Assembly: GCA_963681965.1 (NCBI GenBank)
Contig: OY820579.1
Span: 3,904,001 to 3,968,000 of the forward strand
DNA from: a bacterium
GTDB lineage: Bacteria; Electryoneota; JAOADG01
Length of the DNA: 64,000 nt
Reading direction: 5' to 3'
Shown here piece after piece: positions 2,633-20,729 of this stretch. The translations under genes were made by a program, and so were the position numbers. The notes under the pieces are model-generated. The model did no database searches. It was given only the letters and a program-made list of their open reading frames with translations, and had not been told where the DNA came from. Position 1 is the first letter of the stretch. Each line of letters opens with the position of its first letter.

Positions 2633-2933
2633 GTAGGGCAAAATTTATTCTGCCCAAATTATGTGATTACGATGAATTGAATAGCAGGTCGCAATTGGAG
2701 GCGCGGAAACAACCATCATACCCATTTACATCCCAGAAGTGGTCAGAATAAATTTTGACCTACGGAAAAGATGGGTGTTGGGAATTGGGAAAAGATAAAA
2801 AAACGGGCGAACACGGGGGTTCGCCCCTACTACAGGATAAAGATAGGGCGTATGCGATACGCCCATACGGAAAAGATGGGGCGAATGCGATTACCTTCAG
2901 TGAGCACTTCGTGATTCGCCCCTACGGAAAAGA
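2633..2933. repeat. Mosaic cluster of GTAG-type REP palindromes
   Basis: GTAGGGCAAAATTTATTCTGCCC (2633), GGTCAGAATAAATTTTGACCTAC (2741), CGGGCGAACACGGGGGTTCGCCCCTAC (2804), GGGCGTATGCGATACGCCCATAC (2846), GGGCGAAT..ATTCGCCCCTAC (to 2925), with recurring GGAAAAGA linkers. Confidence 0.8.
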
Positions 2934-2997
2934 AGTACTGTTCCACCAATTTTCGTGCATAGTTCGGTTTCACCTTGATGAATTGGAGGATTTTGTA

Positions 2998-5172
2998 ATG
3001 AAATCTCATCGCCACGTTTCCTGCTTACTTTCAGTTCTGCTCATCACGCTAGTCACCGTACCGATCGTCACTGCACAAATCGCCTGGGTTCCGATGGGAC
3101 CGTTCGGCGGTCACTGCACCGACATCGCTGCCACTTCCGACGGTACGTTGTACGCCTACAGCTACGGCGTCTATCGTTCGACCAACCACGGCGCCAGTTG
3201 GGAGCCGACCGGTTACTACGGGAGTTGGGATGGACACTTGCTGGTATCCGACAGTGCCGTATTCGTGACCACATTCAGCGATCTCTACCGGGTCGATTGT
3301 CAACCACCGCGATTCATCCCACGAGATGGCTCGTCAAACACACTGGTTTCGATCGATCACGATGGTCGACTGTTCCGCACCGGAGACTCGCATACCAATT
3401 TCCACTTCTTTCGCTCGACCGATTACGGTGAGCATTGGACGGTGATCGATACGTCGCTTTCCACGTATGGCAGCAGAATCGGAGCATTTCCCGACAATAG
3501 CTTGATCACCTCCGGCATCAACCAATCACGGATGACAAATTTCCGGTCGACTGATCACGGCGAGCATTGGTCTGTTTACGGCACCCCCGATCACAGTCTG
3601 GCAGTAGAGGTACTGCAATATGCCTTGGGCGAAGACGGTATCGGTTGCGCCGCCACCGATCGCGCTGTCCAGTATACCAGCGATTCCGGAATTTCATGGA
3701 ATGTAGTATTCAACATTCCGATCAATGGTTACATCGAAAAAATCGGACTGCAAGGAGACCAGCGCTTCCATTTCCTGACCTACACCGGGGGCGATTCCAG
3801 CACCTTCTTCTGGATGCCGGCAGCAAGTGGTTCATATGTGCCGACGGTATTCCATCACCGGATGTATTCCTTCGAATCGAATGATGCGTTGGGACCGATC
3901 TTTGCCGGTGAATATCCCGGAATCTGGCGCGCCGATTCGTCCGGAAACATCGCTCCGTTCGGCGATTCGCTCAATTCGTTGAATTGCCGACGGATTTTCG
4001 TCGATGCGAACAACCGGATTCATTGCTTTGCCGGGATCGATACTTCATTCTTTCATTTCTACAGCGACGATATCGGAATGCAGTGGACGCGAGCAGTATG
4101 TCCCTCGAATATTTATTATGCGAATTGCGTCATCACAAACAATTATTGGTATGCGCTCTCAACCAGCAACAACGAAATATTTCACTCTTCCGACGGCGGT
4201 TTAACCTGGTACTATCACGCCACCATTCCAACACGGATAGCCGCCTCGAATTTAGTGGCATTTGATGACGGCACACTGGTTACGTCGACCTACAACTCGC
4301 TGCAAATGCACTATTCGAGCGATGCCGGAACGAGCTGGCATGCGTTTGGATTTCCCGATTCAACCGATTACGAATTGATCTATGAATTCACAGCGATCGA
4401 TACATCGGTGATTGTCGGCTTGACGAATGGCACCATCAGTGGCACCTACCGGTGGTCATTGCACGATTCGCTGCGGCTCATCTCGCCATTTACCTGTCAG
4501 CGGCTGGCGTCCAAGGGGCTGGATGGAATGTACTACTGGTGGATGACCGATTCAGTCAGTCAATACTCACTGTATTTATCTTCGCCGGATTGGACTACGC
4601 TGCTTCATATACCGTTGCCCGATTCGCTCAGCGAGATTACGCCACTCGCAGTCGATGCTGCGGGGCAGCTCTATTTGCAGCGCAATGGCATCACGTGGAT
4701 GTCCAGCGATCGCGGTCAGCATTGGACGCAAATCACCACCGGTTTGCCGTATACCTCGAGTGATGAGAATGTCTTTTATGAATCCAATACCGTGACGGAG
4801 TTGGCAATACATCCCGTCACCGGTGTGCTTCTTGCCGGTATGACACACGGGATTTTCCGGACGGCGTCGTCCGTGACAAGCGTTGCCGAATCGCATCGGA
4901 CGGCATTGCCGACAATCCTCGCGCTCAGCAATTATCCGAATCCGTTCAACGGATCGACAGTCGTCTCGTTTACAGTTCCGCATGCGAATCGCGTGACTGT
5001 GGCGATTTACAATGTCAATGGCGAATTGGTTACGAAGCTGTTGAACAAATCGCTTGCAGCCGGTGAGCATTCGGTGAGGTGGAATGCGGAAGGGATTTCC
5101 AGCGGCGTTTATTTCTGCAAGGTTATCAGCGGCAACTTGAATGCGACGCGAAAGTTGATTTTAGTGAAATGA
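2998..5172 (+). CDS. BNR/Asp-box beta-propeller protein with T9SS C-terminal domain
   Basis: Start ATG 2998 after GGAGG; signal peptide; repeated SxDxGxxW Asp-boxes (STNHGASW, STDYGEHW, SSDGGLTW, SSDAGTSW, SSDRGQHW); CTD NYPNPFN..SSGVYFCKV..RKLILVK. Confidence 0.85.
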   Translation: MKSHRHVSCLLSVLLITLVTVPIVTAQIAWVPMGPFGGHCTDIAATSDGTLYAYSYGVYRSTNHGASWEPTGYYGSWDGHLLVSDSAVFVTTFSDLYRVDCQPPRFIPRDGSSNTLVSIDHDGRLFRTGDSHTNFHFFRSTDYGEHWTVIDTSLSTYGSRIGAFPDNSLITSGINQSRMTNFRSTDHGEHWSVYGTPDHSLAVEVLQYALGEDGIGCAATDRAVQYTSDSGISWNVVFNIPINGYIEKIGLQGDQRFHFLTYTGGDSSTFFWMPAASGSYVPTVFHHRMYSFESNDALGPIFAGEYPGIWRADSSGNIAPFGDSLNSLNCRRIFVDANNRIHCFAGIDTSFFHFYSDDIGMQWTRAVCPSNIYYANCVITNNYWYALSTSNNEIFHSSDGGLTWYYHATIPTRIAASNLVAFDDGTLVTSTYNSLQMHYSSDAGTSWHAFGFPDSTDYELIYEFTAIDTSVIVGLTNGTISGTYRWSLHDSLRLISPFTCQRLASKGLDGMYYWWMTDSVSQYSLYLSSPDWTTLLHIPLPDSLSEITPLAVDAAGQLYLQRNGITWMSSDRGQHWTQITTGLPYTSSDENVFYESNTVTELAIHPVTGVLLAGMTHGIFRTASSVTSVAESHRTALPTILALSNYPNPFNGSTVVSFTVPHANRVTVAIYNVNGELVTKLLNKSLAAGEHSVRWNAEGISSGVYFCKVISGNLNATRKLILVK

Positions 5173-5707
5173 TGGGTGGTAGGTGATTGGATTTCGGTGG
5201 GTCGGAATTTATTCCGACACCTCCTGTGTCTGGTATTTGGTGGCGCAGGCCTCCGAGCCTGCGATTCCTTTTAGTAGGTCGGAATTTATTCCGACTCCTC
5301 TTGTGTCCAAAATTGAAGAAGCAACGCAGGCTGAAGCCTGCGGCTACAAACGAATAAAAAAAAGACACAAAAACGGGCGGGCGTGGGAGCCCGCCCCTAC
5401 TACAGGATACAGGATACACGATTAAAAAAGATACAAGAAGTGGTCAGAACAAGTTCTGACCTGCGGAAAAGAAGATTGGTCGTGCACCTCGAAAAGGCAA
5501 AGGATACGGGCGGGCGTGGGAGCCCGCCCCTACTACAAGATACAGGATACACGATTAAAAAAAGATACAAGAAGTGGTCAGAACAAGTTCTGACCTACGG
5601 AAAAGAAGATTGGTCGTGCACCTCGAAAAGGCAAAGGATACGGGCGGGCGCGGGGATCCGCCCCTACTAAAAGATAAAAAAGATACGGCGCACAAGCCCG
5701 CCGCTAC
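5172..5707. repeat. Mosaic REP array (BIME-like) containing a 133/134-bp tandem duplication
   Basis: GTCGGAATTTATTCCGAC x2, GTGGCGCAGGCCTCCGAGCCTGCG, CGCAGGCTGAAGCCTGCGGCTAC; ACGGGCGGGCG..CCGCCCCTAC at 5373, 5506 and 5640 with near-identical intervening sequence; lies between convergent genes. Confidence 0.9.
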
Positions 5708-5713
5708 TGAAAA

Positions 5714-7105
5714 TTATTCGTCGAGTGCATCCTTCAGGTCGGGTGCAAAGCGCTTGCGGAGATACGGTTTCACCGTTACAATTCCGACCAAGCCGAGCAT
5801 CAGGATGATGCATCCCGCATACACCGTCCAAGTACCGGGATCGTAAGCTACCGAGAAAATCGAATAGGTCGGATTCCCCTCAATAAAACTCGATTGATAA
5901 AATTTCCAGCCGCGATGATCCAACGTGTGGTTCATGTAAATATCGTAGGGATACTCTCCCTGCTGTGGATCATGCACGACCACATCACTAGCGAAACTCG
6001 CCGATTGACGGGTACCGGGATAGAAATCACGTTTGAATTTCTTCAATTCGATCGCAAAACCGAGATCGTACTTTTCCGCCGACATGACAAACGTCGGTGA
6101 ATTGGGACCGAAGGCAAAATCCATCCCTTTCCTGATCCAGACCGCTTTGGAAGTATTCCCTTGAGGATCGGTTACACTGAATTGCAGCGCCTGAATCCCG
6201 TTCTGCCCTTTGGTCGGTTCGAAATAGGTTCGCAGTACTACATGTTCGCGCAATTGCGTCACTGTGATCGACGATTGCGCAGTGATCGAGAATTTCTGAC
6301 CAATTGTAATAGGATCGACCTGCGGTTTATTGTCGACCATGTGCCAGACATACATCTGACCCGGCACGGCAATCAGCAGATACTGCACATTCAACTGTGC
6401 CAAGAACGACACATCGGGGGGGATTGCATTCAGGGCGATCAACTGGATGGTTCCGACCATCGGCAATTGCCAGCGGGCATTCTCGGGTTTACCACTCCAC
6501 AACCATGCATCATTCGACGCCATCGGCGCATCGAATCGAATCGCAATCGCCGGTAGACCATTCGGATCGTCTTCCATCTTGACTTCACCGACTGCCGAGG
6601 GCAAGAACCGCAACAAATTCAATTTACCGCGCTGCTTGGGTAGATCGACTACTTTCGGTTTAGCATTTTCCGATCGCGGCAACGATTCCAGGCGCAGTGG
6701 TAAAATACCATTCACACCATCGGGATAAGTGACTTCCAATTGATGGGATATAAGATCAATCGAATTGGAAGACTGCCCTTCCGCAACTGCCATCTGCCCT
6801 TCGATGCCCCAGTTGCGACTGATGACGGCACCCGCCAAAATCACGAGTACACCAATGTGGGTGAAGAGCCAGACGATCTGATGCAGCTTGAAGGGATAGC
6901 GTTCCAACGTACATGCAATCAGATTGATGGCGAGCAATCCCAATAGGAAATCGAACCAGATACTGTGATAGACATCGACTTGCGCGACTCGAGCCCCGAC
7001 CGACGACTCGTAGGTCGTGCCGAACACCATTGCGAGACCGATTACGATCAGCAAAATCACAGTTAACCGAATGGACGCCAGCGGGCGAATAAATCGTGGT
7101 AACAA
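5714..7105 (-). CDS. resB: Cytochrome c biogenesis protein ResB/CcsB (system II)
   Basis: LASIRLTVILL..GT..E, YHSIWF, LLAINL, HIGVLVILAG..GIEG; C-terminal MNHTL..GWKFYQSSF..SV..DPG..VYAG; TTG start after GGAGG. Confidence 0.85.
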   Translation of the reverse strand: MLPRFIRPLASIRLTVILLIVIGLAMVFGTTYESSVGARVAQVDVYHSIWFDFLLGLLAINLIACTLERYPFKLHQIVWLFTHIGVLVILAGAVISRNWGIEGQMAVAEGQSSNSIDLISHQLEVTYPDGVNGILPLRLESLPRSENAKPKVVDLPKQRGKLNLLRFLPSAVGEVKMEDDPNGLPAIAIRFDAPMASNDAWLWSGKPENARWQLPMVGTIQLIALNAIPPDVSFLAQLNVQYLLIAVPGQMYVWHMVDNKPQVDPITIGQKFSITAQSSITVTQLREHVVLRTYFEPTKGQNGIQALQFSVTDPQGNTSKAVWIRKGMDFAFGPNSPTFVMSAEKYDLGFAIELKKFKRDFYPGTRQSASFASDVVVHDPQQGEYPYDIYMNHTLDHRGWKFYQSSFIEGNPTYSIFSVAYDPGTWTVYAGCIILMLGLVGIVTVKPYLRKRFAPDLKDALDE

Positions 7106-7154
7106 AAATGCCTCCCGAGTGGAGTAGCGATTAATTTCGTCAAATACATCGATT

Positions 7155-7191
7155 AAGAAAAGCGCAGGCTAACAAACCGCCTGCGCTTCTT
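7155..7191 (-). terminator. Rho-independent terminator after the c554-like cytochrome gene
   Basis: Minus strand AAGCGCAGGC-GGTTTGTTA-GCCTGCGCTT followed by TTCTT. Confidence 0.65.
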
Positions 7192-7220
7192 ACCAAACAA
7201 TACGAGTGAAAGCTGAAGAA

Positions 7221-7757
7221 TTACTTGGCTTTCTTGCTGTGTGCTACCTTTGCCCACATTTCATCGAACTTGAATTCACCCTTGTGAGTCGGGCTCTTCT
7301 CGTTGTGACAAGTGACGCACCCTTTTTTGGGATCGGCAGTCATACCGGCGGCGACGCTGGCATCGTGATCCTTCATCACCTTCATCGGGCTGTAATCGGC
7401 ACCGGCACCGTGACACGCTTCGCAGCCAACGCCTTCATCCTTTAATTCGGCATTGATCACGTGGCAGGACAAGCACTGGGGATTATCCTGAGCAGTGCCT
7501 TCGAGCTTCAACGTTTTCATCACGGCAGCAGATTCTTCACCACTCAAACGCTTGAATGCGTTGGCATGAGCAGTTTTTGCCCAAGTTTCGGCAATTTCAC
7601 CCTTCGCCGGTCCTTTGTGACACATTGAACATTTTTTGGCTCCGACAAAAGCGTGAGCTGGTGCGGCATCCTTCGCGGCTTTTTCTTCGGCTAACGCACT
7701 GGTGGTAAACGCAATTGTAACAACCAGAGCCAATGCCACGAGTAGTAGTTTCTTCAT
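7221..7757 (-). CDS. Periplasmic tetraheme cytochrome c (c554-like family)
   Basis: Start 7757 with strong RBS GGAGGAGGT; Sec signal peptide; 4 CxxCH (CSMCH, CLSCH, CEACH, CVTCH); FVGAKKC..W..T.HA.AF..GVGCEACHG.G pattern. Confidence 0.88.
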   Translation of the reverse strand: MKKLLLVALALVVTIAFTTSALAEEKAAKDAAPAHAFVGAKKCSMCHKGPAKGEIAETWAKTAHANAFKRLSGEESAAVMKTLKLEGTAQDNPQCLSCHVINAELKDEGVGCEACHGAGADYSPMKVMKDHDASVAAGMTADPKKGCVTCHNEKSPTHKGEFKFDEMWAKVAHSKKAK

Positions 7758-7904
7758 TCTTGACCTCCTCCATTGATCGATCATTCATTAGGTTAAACGT
7801 ATGAATCAGTTAAAAAGTTTAGATCTCTTGTAGTAGTAAATTTGAAAACAAGTTCGCGACGTATCTAATTATATATCGACAAGTTAGTTCCGGATCCTGA
7901 ATAA

Positions 7905-8507
7905 TTATCTCCGTTGCTCGGTCGGTTTGTTCCAGAAATAGTAACTTTCCCGCGAGTGACAACGATTACAGGTCACGGTAGTACTATCAAATCCGATATC
8001 GTAATACATATCGATTCTGCCATTCATGTGCGTCGGCGAATCCCACAGGGTCGGTGCATCGTGACAGGTAGAACAATTGAAGTCCGTCAATTCGGTTAAA
8101 TGGAATTGATGACGCCCGACGCCGCGCACCGTCATATCGGTCTCGCCCGAAAGCGATCGGGGCGGTGCCCAATTCGCCATCGTGCCTTTCGCAGCTTCCC
8201 CACCGGAACCGTGACAGAAATTACAGTTGGTGACAATCCCGGTCGAATTGGAATTGTGGCATTCGTTGCAACCAACCCCTGACGTCCCGCCATCAAAATA
8301 AGTTCCGTGACAAGCTTGGCACTGGCGGATGTTGAAGTGATTTGCCCGAAGCCAGTCGGCATGTTTGGTTTCCGCCGGCGATCCAAAGTAAGGGTGCGAT
8401 TGATAAATCCCTTCCAACGGAGTATAATTTTTATTCTTCTCAACCTTGCAGCCCATCGTTAACAGGATCGACAGCGCCGCAATCAGAAACAATGCGATTC
8501 GGTTCAT
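7905..8507 (-). CDS. Pentaheme cytochrome c lipoprotein
   Basis: Lipobox LTMG-C; 5 CxxCH (CQACH, CNECH, CNFCH, CSTCH, CNRCH). Confidence 0.85.
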   Translation of the reverse strand: MNRIALFLIAALSILLTMGCKVEKNKNYTPLEGIYQSHPYFGSPAETKHADWLRANHFNIRQCQACHGTYFDGGTSGVGCNECHNSNSTGIVTNCNFCHGSGGEAAKGTMANWAPPRSLSGETDMTVRGVGRHQFHLTELTDFNCSTCHDAPTLWDSPTHMNGRIDMYYDIGFDSTTVTCNRCHSRESYYFWNKPTEQRR

Positions 8508-8519
8508 CGGTAGCTGCTC

Positions 8520-9215
8520 CTATTTGTTATGGCACCGGGCACAAGTGGGTTCGCTCTTGCCAACATCGTGACAGGCGAGACAAGTCTCGATAAATTTCTG
8601 TGCTTCATCGCGATGCGCACCGCCTTGCAGATTCGCCCAAGCGGAACCGAGCGGATGACGCATCGGAATCGAGGCGCGATGACAGGAAGTACAATATTCC
8701 CGGGTTTCGTGACAGGTCAGGCACCGTCCGCCGAATGCGGCATCGGTGGCATGATTGAACCGGTATCCGGCAGGATGCGGTTTGCCGGTGACGCCGGTGC
8801 TGTTATGACAGGCATCGCAACTGCTCTGATTGTGACAAACCCAGCATTCGGTTTTGCGTGCAGTCGCTTCGATCCCATGCAGATTTTTCGTCCAATCGGG
8901 GGTGATATGCGAAGTCGGTTTGCCGAAACCACCACCCTTTTTACCGTTGATATGACAAAAATCGCAATTTTCCTTACCGGCAAATTCGTGACACTCGACG
9001 CACTGTGCATGCTGCGGAAGTGCGTGAATACCGGGTTTTACTTCGCGGGTCGCATCATGACATTTGTCGCACGCGAGTCCGACTTCATCGTGATGATAGT
9101 TATGACTGAATTTCAGATTGGTGACCGATTCATTCATGCCGAATGCGATTAACGCTGATGCGGCAAGAACGATTACAATCAAAATGGGCAGGAGTAATTT
9201 TCGACTGTGTCTCAT
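8520..9215 (-). CDS. Nonaheme periplasmic cytochrome c (c3/c7-like N-terminus)
   Basis: Start 9215 overlaps the porin stop (ATGA); signal peptide; FSHxxH then 9 CxxCH motifs in about 200 aa. Confidence 0.88.
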   Translation of the reverse strand: MRHSRKLLLPILIVIVLAASALIAFGMNESVTNLKFSHNYHHDEVGLACDKCHDATREVKPGIHALPQHAQCVECHEFAGKENCDFCHINGKKGGGFGKPTSHITPDWTKNLHGIEATARKTECWVCHNQSSCDACHNSTGVTGKPHPAGYRFNHATDAAFGGRCLTCHETREYCTSCHRASIPMRHPLGSAWANLQGGAHRDEAQKFIETCLACHDVGKSEPTCARCHNK

Positions 9216-10471
9216 TTCGCACCTCCTGTCACAAACCGGACAGTGACTGAGCCGAGCGCACGATTGTCGCTGTTCAGAGCCGGGGTCTTGTAGTACTGGA
9301 ATTCGCCGCCGAATGTGATCCAATCAAGTTGCTTCGGAGTATAGCGACCGCCTAGATTTGCGGAAGTCGTTTGTCCCTTGACCAAACTTACACCATCCCA
9401 AGAGTAGTCGACCACCGAACTATTCACGTACAGATCGACTTGTTTATCGAAATTGTACCAACCGGACAACCATGGACCATAGGCTTTCGACAACTCACCC
9501 GAGGCGATGCGGTAACCAATCTGTCCGTATGGGGTTGTCACAACGGGACCGCCGCGAAAACCGGTGGCACCTTCCGTCATTGCCAGTGTTCCCTCGGCAC
9601 CCACTCCCCACTTCGCCGGTTCGAGGTAGTAATCAAGTGAACCACGGATTCGCTTTTCAGTCGGTAATTCGAAATTCTTGAACCAACTATTCGCGGCAAT
9701 TTCCGGAGAAAGCGCACCAATTTCGACAAATCCAACCAGCTTCGGAGAATAGTAACGAGTGCGAAGTGTCAGTTCGCGAATATCGGACGACATCAACCGA
9801 TATTGGGTCGTAAAGAGGAATGTCCACCGCTGATTCATCTTCCCGTACATCTGGATACCGAGCAAGCGGCGATAATTTTCACCTTCACGCGATTGATCGA
9901 CATAGGATAATTTCCAGATTTCTTCGTCGAGTGGTTTCCATTTCGGCATGCGATAGCGAATTTCGCCACCGACGAATGGCGAGGATCCTTTCGCCAATTC
10001 GAACCGGCGATTTTCGGGACCGTTGGTGCCGCCAATCAGGGTGAAGCCCAACGACTTCCATTCGCGCGATACTTCCATCCCATCGATGGTTCCGAGCGCG
10101 ACACCGCGATACAAAAAGAAGCGCCCGAGATTCACTTCCCATGGCGAATCGTAATCGTAGTAAGTGAGTTTCATCGCATAGAGTCGGGTTTCGGCAGAGC
10201 GCGAATATTTGTCGACATTGTCACCGCGATACTGAAGATGCGAATTAAATTTCCAGCCGCCGGGTAAATTGTTGACTGTCGCATTGACACCAGTGAATAA
10301 CCAAAGGTGATCTTTTGCGTCGCCGGAACCGGGATCAACCGCTTGGTAGCCGTATGCTTCGGTATAAAAATTACCGCGCAATTGCGGACGCGATGCTTCT
10401 GCCGCCAAAACGCTACTCGCGCCACAACACACTAACAAGAAAAGAGAAATTAGATATTTCCGTCGAATCAT
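9212..10471 (-). CDS. Putative outer-membrane beta-barrel porin of a porin-cytochrome complex
   Basis: Signal peptide; amphipathic Tyr/Trp/Gly-rich beta strands; no TM helices or CxxCH; last strand GSVTVRF; translationally coupled to the multiheme cytochrome gene. Confidence 0.72.
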   Translation of the reverse strand: MIRRKYLISLFLLVCCGASSVLAAEASRPQLRGNFYTEAYGYQAVDPGSGDAKDHLWLFTGVNATVNNLPGGWKFNSHLQYRGDNVDKYSRSAETRLYAMKLTYYDYDSPWEVNLGRFFLYRGVALGTIDGMEVSREWKSLGFTLIGGTNGPENRRFELAKGSSPFVGGEIRYRMPKWKPLDEEIWKLSYVDQSREGENYRRLLGIQMYGKMNQRWTFLFTTQYRLMSSDIRELTLRTRYYSPKLVGFVEIGALSPEIAANSWFKNFELPTEKRIRGSLDYYLEPAKWGVGAEGTLAMTEGATGFRGGPVVTTPYGQIGYRIASGELSKAYGPWLSGWYNFDKQVDLYVNSSVVDYSWDGVSLVKGQTTSANLGGRYTPKQLDWITFGGEFQYYKTPALNSDNRALGSVTVRFVTGGAK

Positions 10472-10625
10472 ATCGGTACCTTCACGGTTTTATTGCAATC
10501 ATTTCACGCAGTATTCAGCAATCCTTCGGTTGATAAAGATACCGTAAGATAAACCAAATTATGCTAGAGTCAGATTGAAATGACTGCAAATAAAACAAAT
10601 ACTGTGCTATCCCCTTAGTTACGTC

Positions 10626-13238
10626 CTATTTCGCTTCGTGATGTTTTTCTTCGGTCGAATTCGGGTCGCCTTCTTGCACAAATCCAGGTGTTTCGACAGT
10701 CTTATCGGCTGCCTGACCGTGGTGATGTTTCCACTCTTCGAGCGACATTCGACCCGTAATAAACGTCCAGCTCATCGGGTACTGCTTCGGATGCATCATC
10801 ACAAAGAAGAAGTGCCAGATGACAATTGCGCTGACCGCGAGTATTGCTTCATAGTAGTGGATAACACCAGCGACACGCACCACCCAGCCGGGCGACCACG
10901 ATGTCGCAATTGCCGGGAACCACAGAATGACACCGGTTACCGCCATGATGAAAGTACCCCAGACCAACGCCCAATATTCGGCTTTCTGGGTATAATCGTA
11001 CGCTTCAAATCGCGGTGGATCTTTCCGCAACCGGAGATGGAACATCACATTTTGAATTGCTAGTGTCGCATCGGCAAGGTTCGGCAAATAATTCTTGATT
11101 TTCTCGCGACCGCGTTGCGTGGTCAACACGAAATGGAGATGCCAGAACGAGTCGACCGTAAGCAATACCGCAAGAATACGGTGGATCAATGCGCGCCGGG
11201 TTTCATCCATACCGAGGAAATGCAATCCCTTCACCCACCAGGTGTCGGTATTGCGAAGCGCCAGACCGGTGATTCCGAGACCGATGAAGGTGATCAGCAA
11301 CAAATAATGTTGCTGCCGCTCGATCTTGTTCATCCGGACGATATACTTCTCGGTCAGGTGCTGTTTACGGTGTTCGCGAAGATGATAGGCATATACAATC
11401 ACATTGTGTACGAACATGCCACCGAGCACGAGAATAATGAGAATGATGTAGAATACGCGGACGTAGTCGTGAATTCCCCAGACCTGACCAAATGCCGCAT
11501 GCGAATAGGAAGCGGCAAATGCGGGATTGGAGTCTTTGTGACACTTGCCGCAAGTCGTGGCGATGTTGTCTTTGTATGTCGTCGACCGGGGATCGAGGTG
11601 ACTGTGAATGGCGTGAGTCGTATGGCAATCGTTGCAATTCGCGACGATCTTCGATTTACTTAACGCCCATCCGTGATAACTGTCCTGATAACTCTTCACG
11701 ACTCCGCGCCAAATTCCGAATCGGTCGGTGAGCGCGTTGTTTTCGTGACAGCGACCGCAATCCTTAGCCACATTCATCGGGGCAGTATTGGAAGCCGGAT
11801 TCGAGCGCGGTAGAATTAAGTGCGATTCGTGACAATCGTTACACGCTGGAGCGTCGACAACACCGCGTTTCGCGGCAGCGCCGTGAATTGAACTGGCATA
11901 CTCTTTTGCAGGCTTTTCGTGACACTTCCCGCACGCCGTGGGCAGATTCAACCGTGAGGTTGAGCTGGTAGGATCACCGGCGGTCTGGATCGTATGACTG
12001 CCGTGGCAATCGACACAAATGGCACCACGAACGTTGGATTTCTTGTTCACCCATTCGCGCCACTTATCGGCGTGTACCGACTTCGACCAATTCGAGAGTG
12101 TCATCGGCATGCGCACAAAATCACTAGTGATCGTAAGACTGTCGCCGTGACATTTACCGCACGTAGAAGGGATATTGGCAGGATTCGCCATCGATTTTTC
12201 ATCGGTGACGCGCCGGACCCCGTGACCGCGATCGTGACAATCTCCGCAATTGGCTGCCACCCCTAATCCAGTGGGATCGTCGCGGAAGTGCATACTCTTT
12301 TTATACTGTTCCAACTCGTTCTTGTGACAGTCGCCGCAATGGAATGCCGGTTCGCCTTTGGTCAAATGCACCGAGTGGCAACTGGCGCAAGTCATTTCAT
12401 TACTGACCAATTTTGCCTGATGCACCGAACCGGAGAATTCACCCATCGTCTTCTTGTGACAGGTCAAGCAATTCGAGAAGGCATCGTTGGATCGTTTTGG
12501 ATCGGGAACGCCGTGCGGTTCGTGACAACTGGAACATGAGACGCGACGCGTAGAAAAAGTATCGATCGCAGCGGTCGTATGAATACCGTGAATGCCGTGC
12601 GGACCGTTACGGAGTTTTTCCATCGCATCGCTGTGACAATTCTGACAAGTACGAGTGATGGAAATTGGATCGCCAAGTTTGGTTTCACCATGCGGCGGAT
12701 GGCAAGTCGCACAACCGTTTTTCTTACCGAGACCGGGGAACTTTCGACTGTGAGTGCTGGCGTTGAATTTCTTCGCCTCTTCGGTATGACAGCGGATACA
12801 GGCAGTGCCTGCCGCACCGGAAGCGACCGAGGCGATGCGATGCGGATCGCCGGTACTGGAATGACAATCGTAGCAGTTCGCGGCTTGGAACGGGGCTTTG
12901 TCACCTCCATGACCGTGGACGCTCGTTTGCCACTTTTCGGGGATACCGGTATGGCATTCGCCACATTTCACCGGAGTGTAAGATTTGAAGTGCGGCGTAT
13001 TGTCCCAATCGCCGGTTTTATGGCAATCGACACAGGACAATGAACCGTGAATGCTCTTGGTGAATTGGTCGGAGACACCGACTTTCTTCCCCTTGGCATT
13101 TTTCAAATCGGGATCGGAATGGCACGTCAGACAGTTGCTGTTATCCGACCATTCGGAGCCAGCAGCGACTGAGTATTGACAAACCAACCACCCGCTCGCA
13201 AGTGCGAGCAGTAATAGCACTATTCGGATTCGTTGCAT
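10626..13238 (-). CDS. 19-heme cytochrome c fused to a C-terminal cytochrome b (FdnI/HydC-like) domain; CbcL-like quinol oxidoreductase
   Basis: 19 CxxCH counted; TM helices with His ligands (QHYLL, IHRIL, WHLHF, IHYYEA, IWHFF) and YDYTQKAEYWALVWG..TG motif. Confidence 0.9.
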   Translation of the reverse strand: MQRIRIVLLLLALASGWLVCQYSVAAGSEWSDNSNCLTCHSDPDLKNAKGKKVGVSDQFTKSIHGSLSCVDCHKTGDWDNTPHFKSYTPVKCGECHTGIPEKWQTSVHGHGGDKAPFQAANCYDCHSSTGDPHRIASVASGAAGTACIRCHTEEAKKFNASTHSRKFPGLGKKNGCATCHPPHGETKLGDPISITRTCQNCHSDAMEKLRNGPHGIHGIHTTAAIDTFSTRRVSCSSCHEPHGVPDPKRSNDAFSNCLTCHKKTMGEFSGSVHQAKLVSNEMTCASCHSVHLTKGEPAFHCGDCHKNELEQYKKSMHFRDDPTGLGVAANCGDCHDRGHGVRRVTDEKSMANPANIPSTCGKCHGDSLTITSDFVRMPMTLSNWSKSVHADKWREWVNKKSNVRGAICVDCHGSHTIQTAGDPTSSTSRLNLPTACGKCHEKPAKEYASSIHGAAAKRGVVDAPACNDCHESHLILPRSNPASNTAPMNVAKDCGRCHENNALTDRFGIWRGVVKSYQDSYHGWALSKSKIVANCNDCHTTHAIHSHLDPRSTTYKDNIATTCGKCHKDSNPAFAASYSHAAFGQVWGIHDYVRVFYIILIILVLGGMFVHNVIVYAYHLREHRKQHLTEKYIVRMNKIERQQHYLLLITFIGLGITGLALRNTDTWWVKGLHFLGMDETRRALIHRILAVLLTVDSFWHLHFVLTTQRGREKIKNYLPNLADATLAIQNVMFHLRLRKDPPRFEAYDYTQKAEYWALVWGTFIMAVTGVILWFPAIATSWSPGWVVRVAGVIHYYEAILAVSAIVIWHFFFVMMHPKQYPMSWTFITGRMSLEEWKHHHGQAADKTVETPGFVQEGDPNSTEEKHHEAK

Positions 13239-18689: not shown

Positions 18690-20729
18690 CTACTTTAATA
18701 GTAGAATTTTTCGAGTGGATGTTTGGTTTCCGGCTGTCAATTCGACAAAGTAAGTTCCACTCGCGATCCCCTTCCCATTAAACTGAATGGAGTGCATTCC
18801 GGGATTCATCGTCTCATTATTCACAATCTGTGCCACTTGACGACCCATCAAATCGAATACCGCAAGCTTTGCCGGCATTCGCGCCGGTAATTCGAACCGA
18901 ATGATCGTTTCGGAATTGAACGGATTCGGATAATTCGCCAGCATCGTGATTCGCGTTGGGAGCTTATTCGTTGCATGGTCGCGAACCGACATCGTCGGGA
19001 CGATCAGATCGGGTTCGCCATCACCAGCATCCAATATGCCGTTACCTGCCTGATAACGATATCTTTCCGGTCGCCACGGGTGGGTGTCTTCGGTATGACC
19101 GAGTAAGTTTGGATTCCATAAGGTATCGATGATCCCGTTGTTTTCCGACCCATCCGCATCGGGACCGGGATACATCCCGTAATATATCCCATCAATAATT
19201 ACGCTATCACCCGGAGATACGCCGTACAAACCGTCACTTCCAGTGTCTTCGCCATACCACCCATCGCCGTTGGGAAATTGCAGGGTGTGGGTGTCAACCA
19301 TCGGTAAATCCAAGCCGGGGCGGATCACGTTAGCAAACGCTCCAATCGAATTGAATTGATATTTCGTCGGATCCAGCGTGTTGCCTACTTGTGGATTGTT
19401 CTCATCGTGAAATCCCCAAGCGCCAAACACTACCAACGAAATGGCGGTACTTTCTCCGGGATAGAGACGGTAGACCGCACGACCCTGAGGATCATAATTA
19501 TTAAAAATTCCCAACGGTCCGAACGAGATCAGGAAGCGCGCATCGTAACCGTTCGCGATATCGGCATTATTTGCATCAGGCCGACGCCAGTTGTGCGATC
19601 GAGTAGTATCGGCGGGATCGGGTTGCGGATGTGCCGCGATCCAAGCAGTATCGTTCACACGATATTGATCGAAGTCGTGTTCGCCGTTGCTCATGATTAA
19701 ATATTTGCGGGTATCCCCCATCGGCGTGCCGATCACGTCGGGCCAGCGATTGGGCAATTCACCGTTGACAACACCATCCTGCCAGCTCGGACCGTAATCC
19801 AAATCGGAATTTCCGTTCGATATCCACCAATTATAACTGGTCCGACAATGCGGATTTGGATCTTGAAACAGTTTGACGCCCACTGCTCCGGCGCAGGTAA
19901 AATCGTGTCCGGAATTCACATCATGCGGTCGTCCGTCATTGTCGGCAATCCACGCGGTATTTATCAACGATGAATCGTTCGGACCGTTATAATAATAATC
20001 GATGAAGCCTGTGATGTCGTCGGTGTGGTAATTCACCTCATCGGTTCTGCCGACATCGCCATCGAAATAAAATCCCAGATAGACGTTCTTCAGATAGTTG
20101 GTGGAGATATTCTCGATATTGTAAGTAATGACGATAAAATCGCTGTGCCAGTCGCAGCTTAGCTGTGTGACTTTGATTCCGAGTGGGAAATGGGTACCGT
20201 CGATCACGTCGGTGGGAACATAAGGAGCAGCGATGCTCGTATCGGTGTAACAGCATGCCATGCTGTTCGGGGCATTCGTAACGTTGGTCTGGAAATTTGC
20301 ATCGGTTCCTTCTCCGGGACAAAACTCACCGCGCAAACGACCGGCGGGATTGACCCACCCATCGATTCCGACACTGACCCGGGGAAATTCCGAACCATTC
20401 TGCTGGACAAGAGCGCCGACCCAGATTCCACCAATGTAGAGATACTCGGTATTCGATCCGACCGGAAATTCAAGCGGAGGCGCCCAACCACCGTAGATCG
20501 GATCGGTCAGAGCGTTTGGGTCACTGGCACTTTCATTGCCAAAGAAACCGTAATTGGTAAAGTTCATCCGCATTGTAAACGTATGCTGAACGCGGTTTTG
20601 CATATTGGGATTGAACGGATTGATTTCGTCGATTGCGGAACTCCGTATCGGACCGCGGGGGTCTCCGAAGACAATAGATCCGAGCAGTAATAAAAGAAGC
20701 ATCGAAATAATTATTGGACGAAATGACAT
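18690..20729 (-). CDS. Secreted Asp/Gly-rich protein with T9SS C-terminal domain
   Basis: Signal peptide; TNYGFFG..EFPVGS..EYLY.GGIWVGA; D-rich DTGSDG/DADGSENNG motifs; CTD NYPNPFN..ASGTYFVEL..RKILLLK. Confidence 0.85.
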   Translation of the reverse strand: MSFRPIIISMLLLLLLGSIVFGDPRGPIRSSAIDEINPFNPNMQNRVQHTFTMRMNFTNYGFFGNESASDPNALTDPIYGGWAPPLEFPVGSNTEYLYIGGIWVGALVQQNGSEFPRVSVGIDGWVNPAGRLRGEFCPGEGTDANFQTNVTNAPNSMACCYTDTSIAAPYVPTDVIDGTHFPLGIKVTQLSCDWHSDFIVITYNIENISTNYLKNVYLGFYFDGDVGRTDEVNYHTDDITGFIDYYYNGPNDSSLINTAWIADNDGRPHDVNSGHDFTCAGAVGVKLFQDPNPHCRTSYNWWISNGNSDLDYGPSWQDGVVNGELPNRWPDVIGTPMGDTRKYLIMSNGEHDFDQYRVNDTAWIAAHPQPDPADTTRSHNWRRPDANNADIANGYDARFLISFGPLGIFNNYDPQGRAVYRLYPGESTAISLVVFGAWGFHDENNPQVGNTLDPTKYQFNSIGAFANVIRPGLDLPMVDTHTLQFPNGDGWYGEDTGSDGLYGVSPGDSVIIDGIYYGMYPGPDADGSENNGIIDTLWNPNLLGHTEDTHPWRPERYRYQAGNGILDAGDGEPDLIVPTMSVRDHATNKLPTRITMLANYPNPFNSETIIRFELPARMPAKLAVFDLMGRQVAQIVNNETMNPGMHSIQFNGKGIASGTYFVELTAGNQTSTRKILLLK

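Follow-up and report, generated by a model that had tools for sequence, protein, structure and literature searches.

In the window, a 64,000-nucleotide stretch of an Electryoneota genome, the six genes at positions 5714–13238 probably encode a porin–cytochrome (Pcc)-type conduit that would run outwards, taking electrons from menaquinol and delivering them to an extracellular acceptor, and that would be fed by a quinol oxidase of the CbcL/MtrH family. Gene order, heme motifs, signal peptides, a lipobox, the histidines of the cytochrome b domain and co-occurrence among relatives are read from the sequence, and the unplugged barrel is predicted by structure modelling. We call the cluster Pcc-like because its 22-strand barrel, the nine hemes of its periplasmic cytochrome and the five hemes of its lipoprotein fit the published Pcc ranges (18–22 strands for the porin, 5–14 hemes for the periplasmic and 1–15 for the outer-membrane cytochrome; PMC4245776). 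The value of the locus lies in its phylum-wide spread and in an unnamed compact barrel–cytochrome family, not in the co-clustering of a quinol oxidase with a conduit.

The six genes and their products

All six open reading frames are on the minus strand, in agreement with the original prediction, and in the order listed below they contain 19, 0, 9, 5, 4 and 0 CxxCH motifs. The sum of 37 compares with a chance expectation of about 0.005 from the composition of the genome.

10626..13238, minus strand: CbcL/MtrH/MtoC-family protein, 870 aa; 19 CxxCH after a signal peptide, FdnI/HydC-like cytochrome b domain at the C-terminus, PF01292; predicted menaquinol oxidase
9212..10471, minus strand: predicted outer-membrane β-barrel, 419 aa; 22 strands, no plug; unnamed family
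8520..9215, minus strand: periplasmic 9-heme cytochrome, 231 aa; start overlaps the barrel stop; predicted barrel insert
7905..8507, minus strand: 5-heme lipoprotein cytochrome, 200 aa; lipobox, Cys20
7221..7757, minus strand: periplasmic tetraheme cytochrome, 178 aa; PF13435, c554-like N-terminal half; predicted shuttle
7155..7191, minus strand: terminator-like hairpin with U-rich tail; −23.1 kcal/mol, z = −4.2
5714..7105, minus strand: ResB/CcsB cytochrome c maturation protein, second copy; PF05140; without ccsA in the cluster

Gaps of 154, 12, 147 and 115 bases separate the cytochrome b/c gene from the barrel gene, the 9-heme from the 5-heme gene, the 5-heme from the tetraheme gene and the tetraheme gene from resB, respectively. 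The barrel and 9-heme genes are coupled through the ATGA overlap that had been noted earlier: the barrel stop codon (9212–9214) overlaps the ATG at 9213–9215, and for this reason we assign the 9-heme protein to the 231-residue frame and not to the 267-residue open reading frame.

The AlphaFold2 model of the 419-residue protein is an all-β barrel of 22 strands with a predicted local distance difference test score (pLDDT) of 95.2, and the earlier call of a barrel is retained on the strength of this model. The mature chain is 396 residues long and its first strand starts at residue 7, which argues against a plug domain. No Pfam or NCBIfam entry matches the protein, and annotation with these libraries misses it because neither has a model for it. 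Among 110 barrel homologues none matches the MtrB/PioB or the TonB-receptor families; weak matches to OMP_b-brl (8/110) and Porin_4 (5/110) are observed. A sequence search of solved chains found no relative, and the nearest solved folds to the model are the barrels of TonB-dependent transporters. Identity as such a transporter was rejected on the absence of an N-terminal plug in the model together with the lack of a family match. A profile of the barrel would be a usable marker. Weak matches to the profile used here (E between 1e-6 and 1e-18) also occur in a longer family with frames of 530–600 residues, present in the source genome and in many genomes of the phylum.

The 870-residue protein matches PF01292 above the cut-off and aligns with FdnI (1kqf_C) across residues 631–840 (E = 4e-4). 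His611, His644, His686, His700, His794 and His809 of its cytochrome b domain are invariant in 18/18 sequences. Four segments above the hydropathy threshold and one placed by alignment suggest about five membrane helices; the C-terminal helix of a 17-heme paralogue from the same genome is missing.

The 9-heme protein carries a signal peptide and has 22.8 residues per heme. Eight non-motif histidines are invariant in 21/21 family members and a ninth is present in 17/21. Nine conserved distal histidines for nine hemes point to a wire rather than a catalytic site. In complex prediction with the barrel, a score of 0.53 was obtained, compared with 0.00 for the best of three controls; the runs gave 0.15, 0.53 and 0.55, with at least 30% of contacts shared and a partner pLDDT of at least 54. 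The mark used for this score is reached by 116 of 157 solved pairs and by two of 215 mismatched pairs, and at scores of 0.60 or lower only 18 of the 157 solved pairs pass, along with both passing mismatches. The prediction weakly suggests that the 9-heme protein binds the barrel.

The lipobox cysteine of the 5-heme protein (Cys20) is invariant in all 18 aligned homologues, none of which has an aspartate at position +2. The family spans 5–24 CxxCH motifs, with the source-genome member as its shortest form, and the CxxxxCH/CxxCH domain TIGR01904 is matched in 15 of the 18 members, not including that of the source genome. With these motif counts, the FdnI-like domain, the signal peptide and the lipobox, the earlier descriptions of the 19-heme cytochrome b, 9-heme and 5-heme proteins stand. 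For the tetraheme protein the description as c554-like has to be narrowed. Its start is probably at 7757, downstream of a GGAGG site, and the likeness is confined to the N-terminal half (PF13435; 1bvb, E = 3.4e-6, only query residues 14–101); assignment as a full-length cytochrome c554 (CycA) fails at 38.8 bits against a cut-off of 400.

ResB is confirmed by PF05140 above the Pfam cut-off. The gene is 57% identical to the housekeeping resB that stands beside ccsA at G000:C1:326707–329848, and this sole ccsA match in the genome, with its own resB, is 3.58 Mb from the cluster. A ResB–CcsA (System II) pair was discarded as a reading of the cluster gene, there being no ccsA in the cluster. The hairpin that separates it from the tetraheme gene was equalled in stability by 0/200 shuffles, and a consensus terminator scan did not list it. 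In relatives a ccsA–resB pair (L061) or a resB (L062) lies inside the cluster. A third, divergent ResB (31% identical) is encoded in the source genome at L021:14508–15842 (G000:C1:3880508–3881842), with Gln replacing a His of the third membrane helix that the other two share.

Distribution across the phylum

The source genome is a single contig of 4.24 Mb, 99.9% complete, and belongs to Electryoneota (AABM5-125-24), a lineage of the Fibrobacteres–Chlorobi–Bacteroidetes (FCB) group (PMC9324843). It encodes SprA, in line with the original prediction of an FCB-type bacterium bearing a type IX secretion system. The menB gene is present as well and favours the menaquinol-fed reading. Profiles were searched against 79 Electryoneota genomes; because these are kin and many are incomplete, the counts are descriptive. 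The barrel profile matched 61 genomes and 60 are counted: G026 was dropped, its sole match being weak and in a longer frame, and G017 was kept though its match is half-length. A homologue is also found in Candidatus Electryonea clarkiae.

The 9-heme family is present in 58/79 genomes and the CbcL-type cytochrome b domain in 53/79, in each case always together with the barrel, while 19 genomes have none of the three. A gene of the 9-heme family lies directly downstream of the barrel (within 1.2 kb) in 55/60; in four of the other five the locus is near a contig end or divided between contigs, and G017 has another layout. The tetraheme cytochrome is found in 63 genomes, comprising 58 of the 60 with a barrel and five without. 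The cytochrome b domain lies within 16 kb of the barrel in 27 genomes; in 25 it sits on a different contig, and in one the two are megabases apart. Only in the four genomes of the source genome's family does the cytochrome b/c gene directly precede the barrel gene. The sulfite reductase gene dsrA was found in 37 genomes, 25 of them with the barrel; 35 of the 42 genomes without dsrA carry it.

Besides the source genome, 59 genomes carry the barrel, and we read the neighbourhoods in 35 of them, picked by barrel match. The order of barrel, 7–12-heme cytochrome and lipoprotein cytochrome is kept in 33 of these 35 loci, among them 14/14 loci that were left out of cytochrome-profile building; the conservation of synteny that the original prediction proposed to examine is strong. 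Among metagenome loci related to the Calditrichia barrel the triad is seen in two of three; the third contig ends past the start of the second gene and is apparently the same locus as one of the other two. The 35 loci further include the tetraheme cytochrome (19), a 17- or 19-heme cytochrome b/c protein (19), a 17–18-heme NapC/NrfH-like protein (11) and a 9-heme lipoprotein (13). Some hold, in addition, an HmcB/HmcC-like pair with a 13-heme protein, ccsA–resB or a rhodanese lipoprotein.

In the source genome a NapC/NrfH-like 17-heme protein, a 17-heme cytochrome b/c paralogue, a 9-heme lipoprotein and an HmcBC-like unit are encoded at scattered sites:

L024:9269–11845: 17-heme cytochrome b/c paralogue, clustered with the triad in relatives
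L025:8958–11012: 17-heme NapC/NrfH-like protein, clustered with the triad in relatives
L029:8258–9775: 9-heme lipoprotein
L030:9557–11960: HmcB/HmcC-like pair with a tetraheme cytochrome

Since these partners are clustered in relatives and scattered here, the window cluster is a pared-down version of a larger system whose genes often lie together. The claim that it is a self-contained pathway holds only in part: ccsA is elsewhere, resB is a second copy cut off by the terminator-like hairpin, and the exact order occurs in only four genomes.

Two variants deserve mention. In some relatives a rhodanese-domain lipoprotein paired with a 9–10-heme cytochrome lies near the triad (L034:3919–6069, L040:13704–15837 and L063:5620–7763) and hints at surface sulfur chemistry. 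In G017 (L049:9556–14200) a single frame joins the N-terminal barrel half to a 3-heme cytochrome segment, and tetraheme-like, cytochrome b/b6 and 9-heme genes follow; a gene fusion or a fault in the assembly may explain this layout.

Proposed electron path, known conduits and alternatives

In the proposed path the cytochrome b domain would oxidize menaquinol and the 19 c-hemes of the 870-residue protein would lead the electrons into the periplasm, from where they may reach the 9-heme protein directly or via the tetraheme cytochrome. The all-bis-His 9-heme protein would sit in the barrel, and the 5-heme lipoprotein would cap its outer face and pass electrons to Fe or Mn oxides, humic matter, sulfur particles or a partner cell. 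The 9-heme lipoprotein or the OmcE-like cytochromes encoded elsewhere in the source genome may be further recipients. The extra ResB would raise the capacity for heme attachment. If this is correct, Electryoneota, known chiefly as sulfate reducers and protein degraders (PMC9324843), would also take part in electron flow to or from metals, humic matter, sulfur or other species. The barrel with its 9-heme and 5-heme partners (about 780 residues in all) is a compact target for the structure of a non-Mtr conduit.

The Geobacter systems OmbB–OmaB–OmcB, ExtABCD and ExtEFG share the order of porin, periplasmic multiheme cytochrome and outer-membrane multiheme lipoprotein (PMC4245776), and the 22 strands and nine hemes found here are within the published ranges; the likeness is one of counts and order. 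Homologous lipoproteins of the present family also contain the atypical CxxxxCH motif, as is reported for GSU_2724 and IALB_1837. Unlike in Geobacter, the same run of genes also codes for a CbcL-family protein with 19 hemes and for a tetraheme cytochrome of c554-like kind, and the lipoprotein has only five hemes. Within the FCB group, Ignavibacterium album (IALB_1837–1840), Melioribacter roseus and Caldithrix abyssi have a comparable triad with an extra periplasmic cytochrome (PMC4245776, PMC6137239, PMC7399161). The barrel family may be the same as theirs, since its distant members are labelled Calditrichia, Fidelibacterota and Zixibacteria; IALB_1838, however, has 14 hemes in 400 residues, against nine in 231 here.

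As in CbcL, MtrH and MtoC, N-terminal c-hemes (3–23 in published members) are joined in one chain to a cytochrome b that resembles FdnI/HydC and keeps its conserved histidines (PMC6295460). Most members of that family have six transmembrane helices and a few have five or four (PMC6295460); CbcL itself has nine hemes, compared with 19 and about five helices here. MtrH and MtoC are likewise encoded with their own porin–cytochrome genes, with MtrB in place of a 22-strand barrel. The original prediction held that the locus is not of the MtrAB/PioAB type, and this is corroborated. MtrB is built of 26 strands (PMC12133095), and its chain in 6r2q is 649 residues long, against 22 strands in a mature chain of 396 residues; MtrB-type porins have 26–28 strands, and the MtrAB/MtoAB/PioAB type was rejected on this count and on the 0/110 family matches. 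A decaheme partner of the MtrA/DmsE family was likewise rejected, as the cytochrome has nine hemes and no match to TIGR03508. PCC3/PCC4 (PMC5566968) and the EET1–4 clusters from peat (bioRxiv 10.64898/2026.05.27.727921) are comparable as genome-inferred, whole-envelope porin–cytochrome clusters of non-model lineages. PCC3/PCC4 differ in having a separate inner-membrane protein of 300 residues; no protein of about that length with two HX13H motifs is encoded in 5714–13238, and this identity was discarded. A layout resembling PCC3/PCC4, which the window cluster does not share, occurs elsewhere in the source genome at L023:6396–14471 (G000:C1:1526396–1534471), where a 1432-residue protein with 56 CxxCH motifs is followed by a paralogue of the barrel (E = 2e-19), a 308-residue histidine-bearing membrane protein and a probable Fe–S/FAD oxidoreductase.

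The original prediction also regarded the joining of a quinol oxidase to a conduit, and its presence in an FCB lineage, as novel. Both have precedents: mtrH and mtoC lie in mtrAB and mtoAB clusters (PMC6295460), cytochrome b/c genes occur inside some pcc clusters, I. album being among the pcc carriers (PMC4245776), and Geobacter-like pcc porins are published for Melioribacter and Caldithrix (PMC6137239, PMC7399161). Unnamed barrel–multiheme clusters are reported from a Bacteroidetes genome (PMC8258643) and from peat lineages (bioRxiv 10.64898/2026.05.27.727921), and an Mtr-type cluster from an RBG-1 genome (PMC3903129). A survey describes two Electryoneota genomes as rich in secreted multiheme proteins (PMC11495043). 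In the Electryoneota literature, most subscription journals being outside the search, no described conduit was found, and the term 'extracellular electron' has 0 occurrences in the phylum naming paper (PMC9324843). What looks new is the unnamed compact barrel–cytochrome family kept across the phylum.

Several points weigh against an outward conduit. I. album carries a pcc cluster, yet failed to grow with oxides of Fe(III) or Mn(IV) (PMC4245776), and sequence features of CbcL, MtrH and MtoC do not separate quinol oxidation from quinone reduction (PMC6295460). Periplasmic sinks encoded in the genome (NrfA-like and octaheme tetrathionate reductase family) could drain the 19-heme protein. The surface exposure of the lipoprotein is a prediction. 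In Bacteroidota, an acidic patch serves as the signal for lipoprotein export to the surface. Residues +2 to +8 of the lipoprotein are net basic (one acidic, three basic), while those of all 17 homologues are net acidic. The predicted model of the 9-heme protein is poor, and in the single-contig genome G015 the cytochrome b genes are megabases from the barrel. Moreover, the genomes share ancestry and do not count as independent samples, and many of them are incomplete.

The same conduit could work mainly inwards, in the manner of Mto or Pio; Fe(II), reduced minerals or a syntrophic partner would then supply electrons to menaquinone and, through it, to sulfate, nitrite or oxygen respiration. MtoC of Fe(II) oxidizers belongs to the same family without a distinguishing feature (PMC6295460), 25 of the 60 barrel genomes have dsrA, and the source genome has two COX1-family genes and a cluster whose gene layout reads as alternative complex III. 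We nevertheless consider inward flow unlikely: the outer lipoprotein cytochrome is kept in 33/35 loci, whereas Fe(II)-oxidizing clusters often have none (PMC4245776), the loci repeatedly hold more than one cytochrome able to react with quinol in parallel, as in the outward pathway of Geobacter, and dsrA was not found in the 99.9%-complete source genome. It is also rather improbable that the system is periplasmic only, the cytochromes serving as a wire or charge store for soluble reductases, the lipoprotein facing inwards and the barrel anchoring or exporting cytochromes. The lipoprotein N-terminus without the acidic patch of its homologues, the weak backing of barrel–cytochrome binding by the model and the NrfA-like and octaheme reductases of the genome would fit this arrangement. 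An unplugged 22-strand barrel, on the other hand, would need a filler, and the barrel and 9-heme genes abut or overlap across the phylum. A soluble terminal reductase as a constant companion had been named as evidence against the original prediction; in the loci read, their neighbours partly scanned, genes for molybdopterin, NrfA or octaheme reductases were not seen as recurrent neighbours of the triad.

That the barrel is a transporter of heme, iron or another solute and merely lies among cytochrome genes appears very improbable. The closest solved folds, the weak OMP_b-brl and Porin_4 matches and an HmuY gene near one locus (L065) would agree with it; the absence of a plug in the model, the lack of a TonB-receptor match in the 110 members and the same multiheme family adjoining the barrel in 55/60 genomes argue against it.

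Neighbouring loci

A second cytochrome cluster lies left of the window at L022:147–17991 (G000:C1:3884147–3901991). It encodes two OmcE-like tetraheme cytochromes, an 11-heme protein that begins like OmcE, proteins with eight and nine hemes, proteins with NHL-propeller-like repeats and a probable barrel of 572 residues. The two OmcE homologues (7TFS, E = 3.5e-33) lie outside the window, 7.7 kb to the left of resB. Only four of the 79 phylum genomes have OmcE homologues, and we therefore regard OmcE as accessory. It is conceivable, though doubtful as a whole, that an unnamed family of 22-strand porins with 9–12-heme cytochromes, distinct from the Geobacter porins, is shared by Electryoneota with Calditrichota, Zixibacteria and Fidelibacterota, that the source genome has its minimal 9 + 5-heme form and that electrons pass from the conduit to OmcE-type nanowires whose genes are 8 kb away.

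Genes for large secreted proteins that end in Por secretion C-terminal domains surround the cluster, at 2755–5172 and 18690–20729. Past resB, at 5373–5676, two direct copies of 171 bp are 95% identical and contain a palindrome resembling repetitive extragenic palindromic (REP) elements. Counting both strands, this palindrome occurs 24 times in the genome with up to two mismatches and 70 times with up to four.

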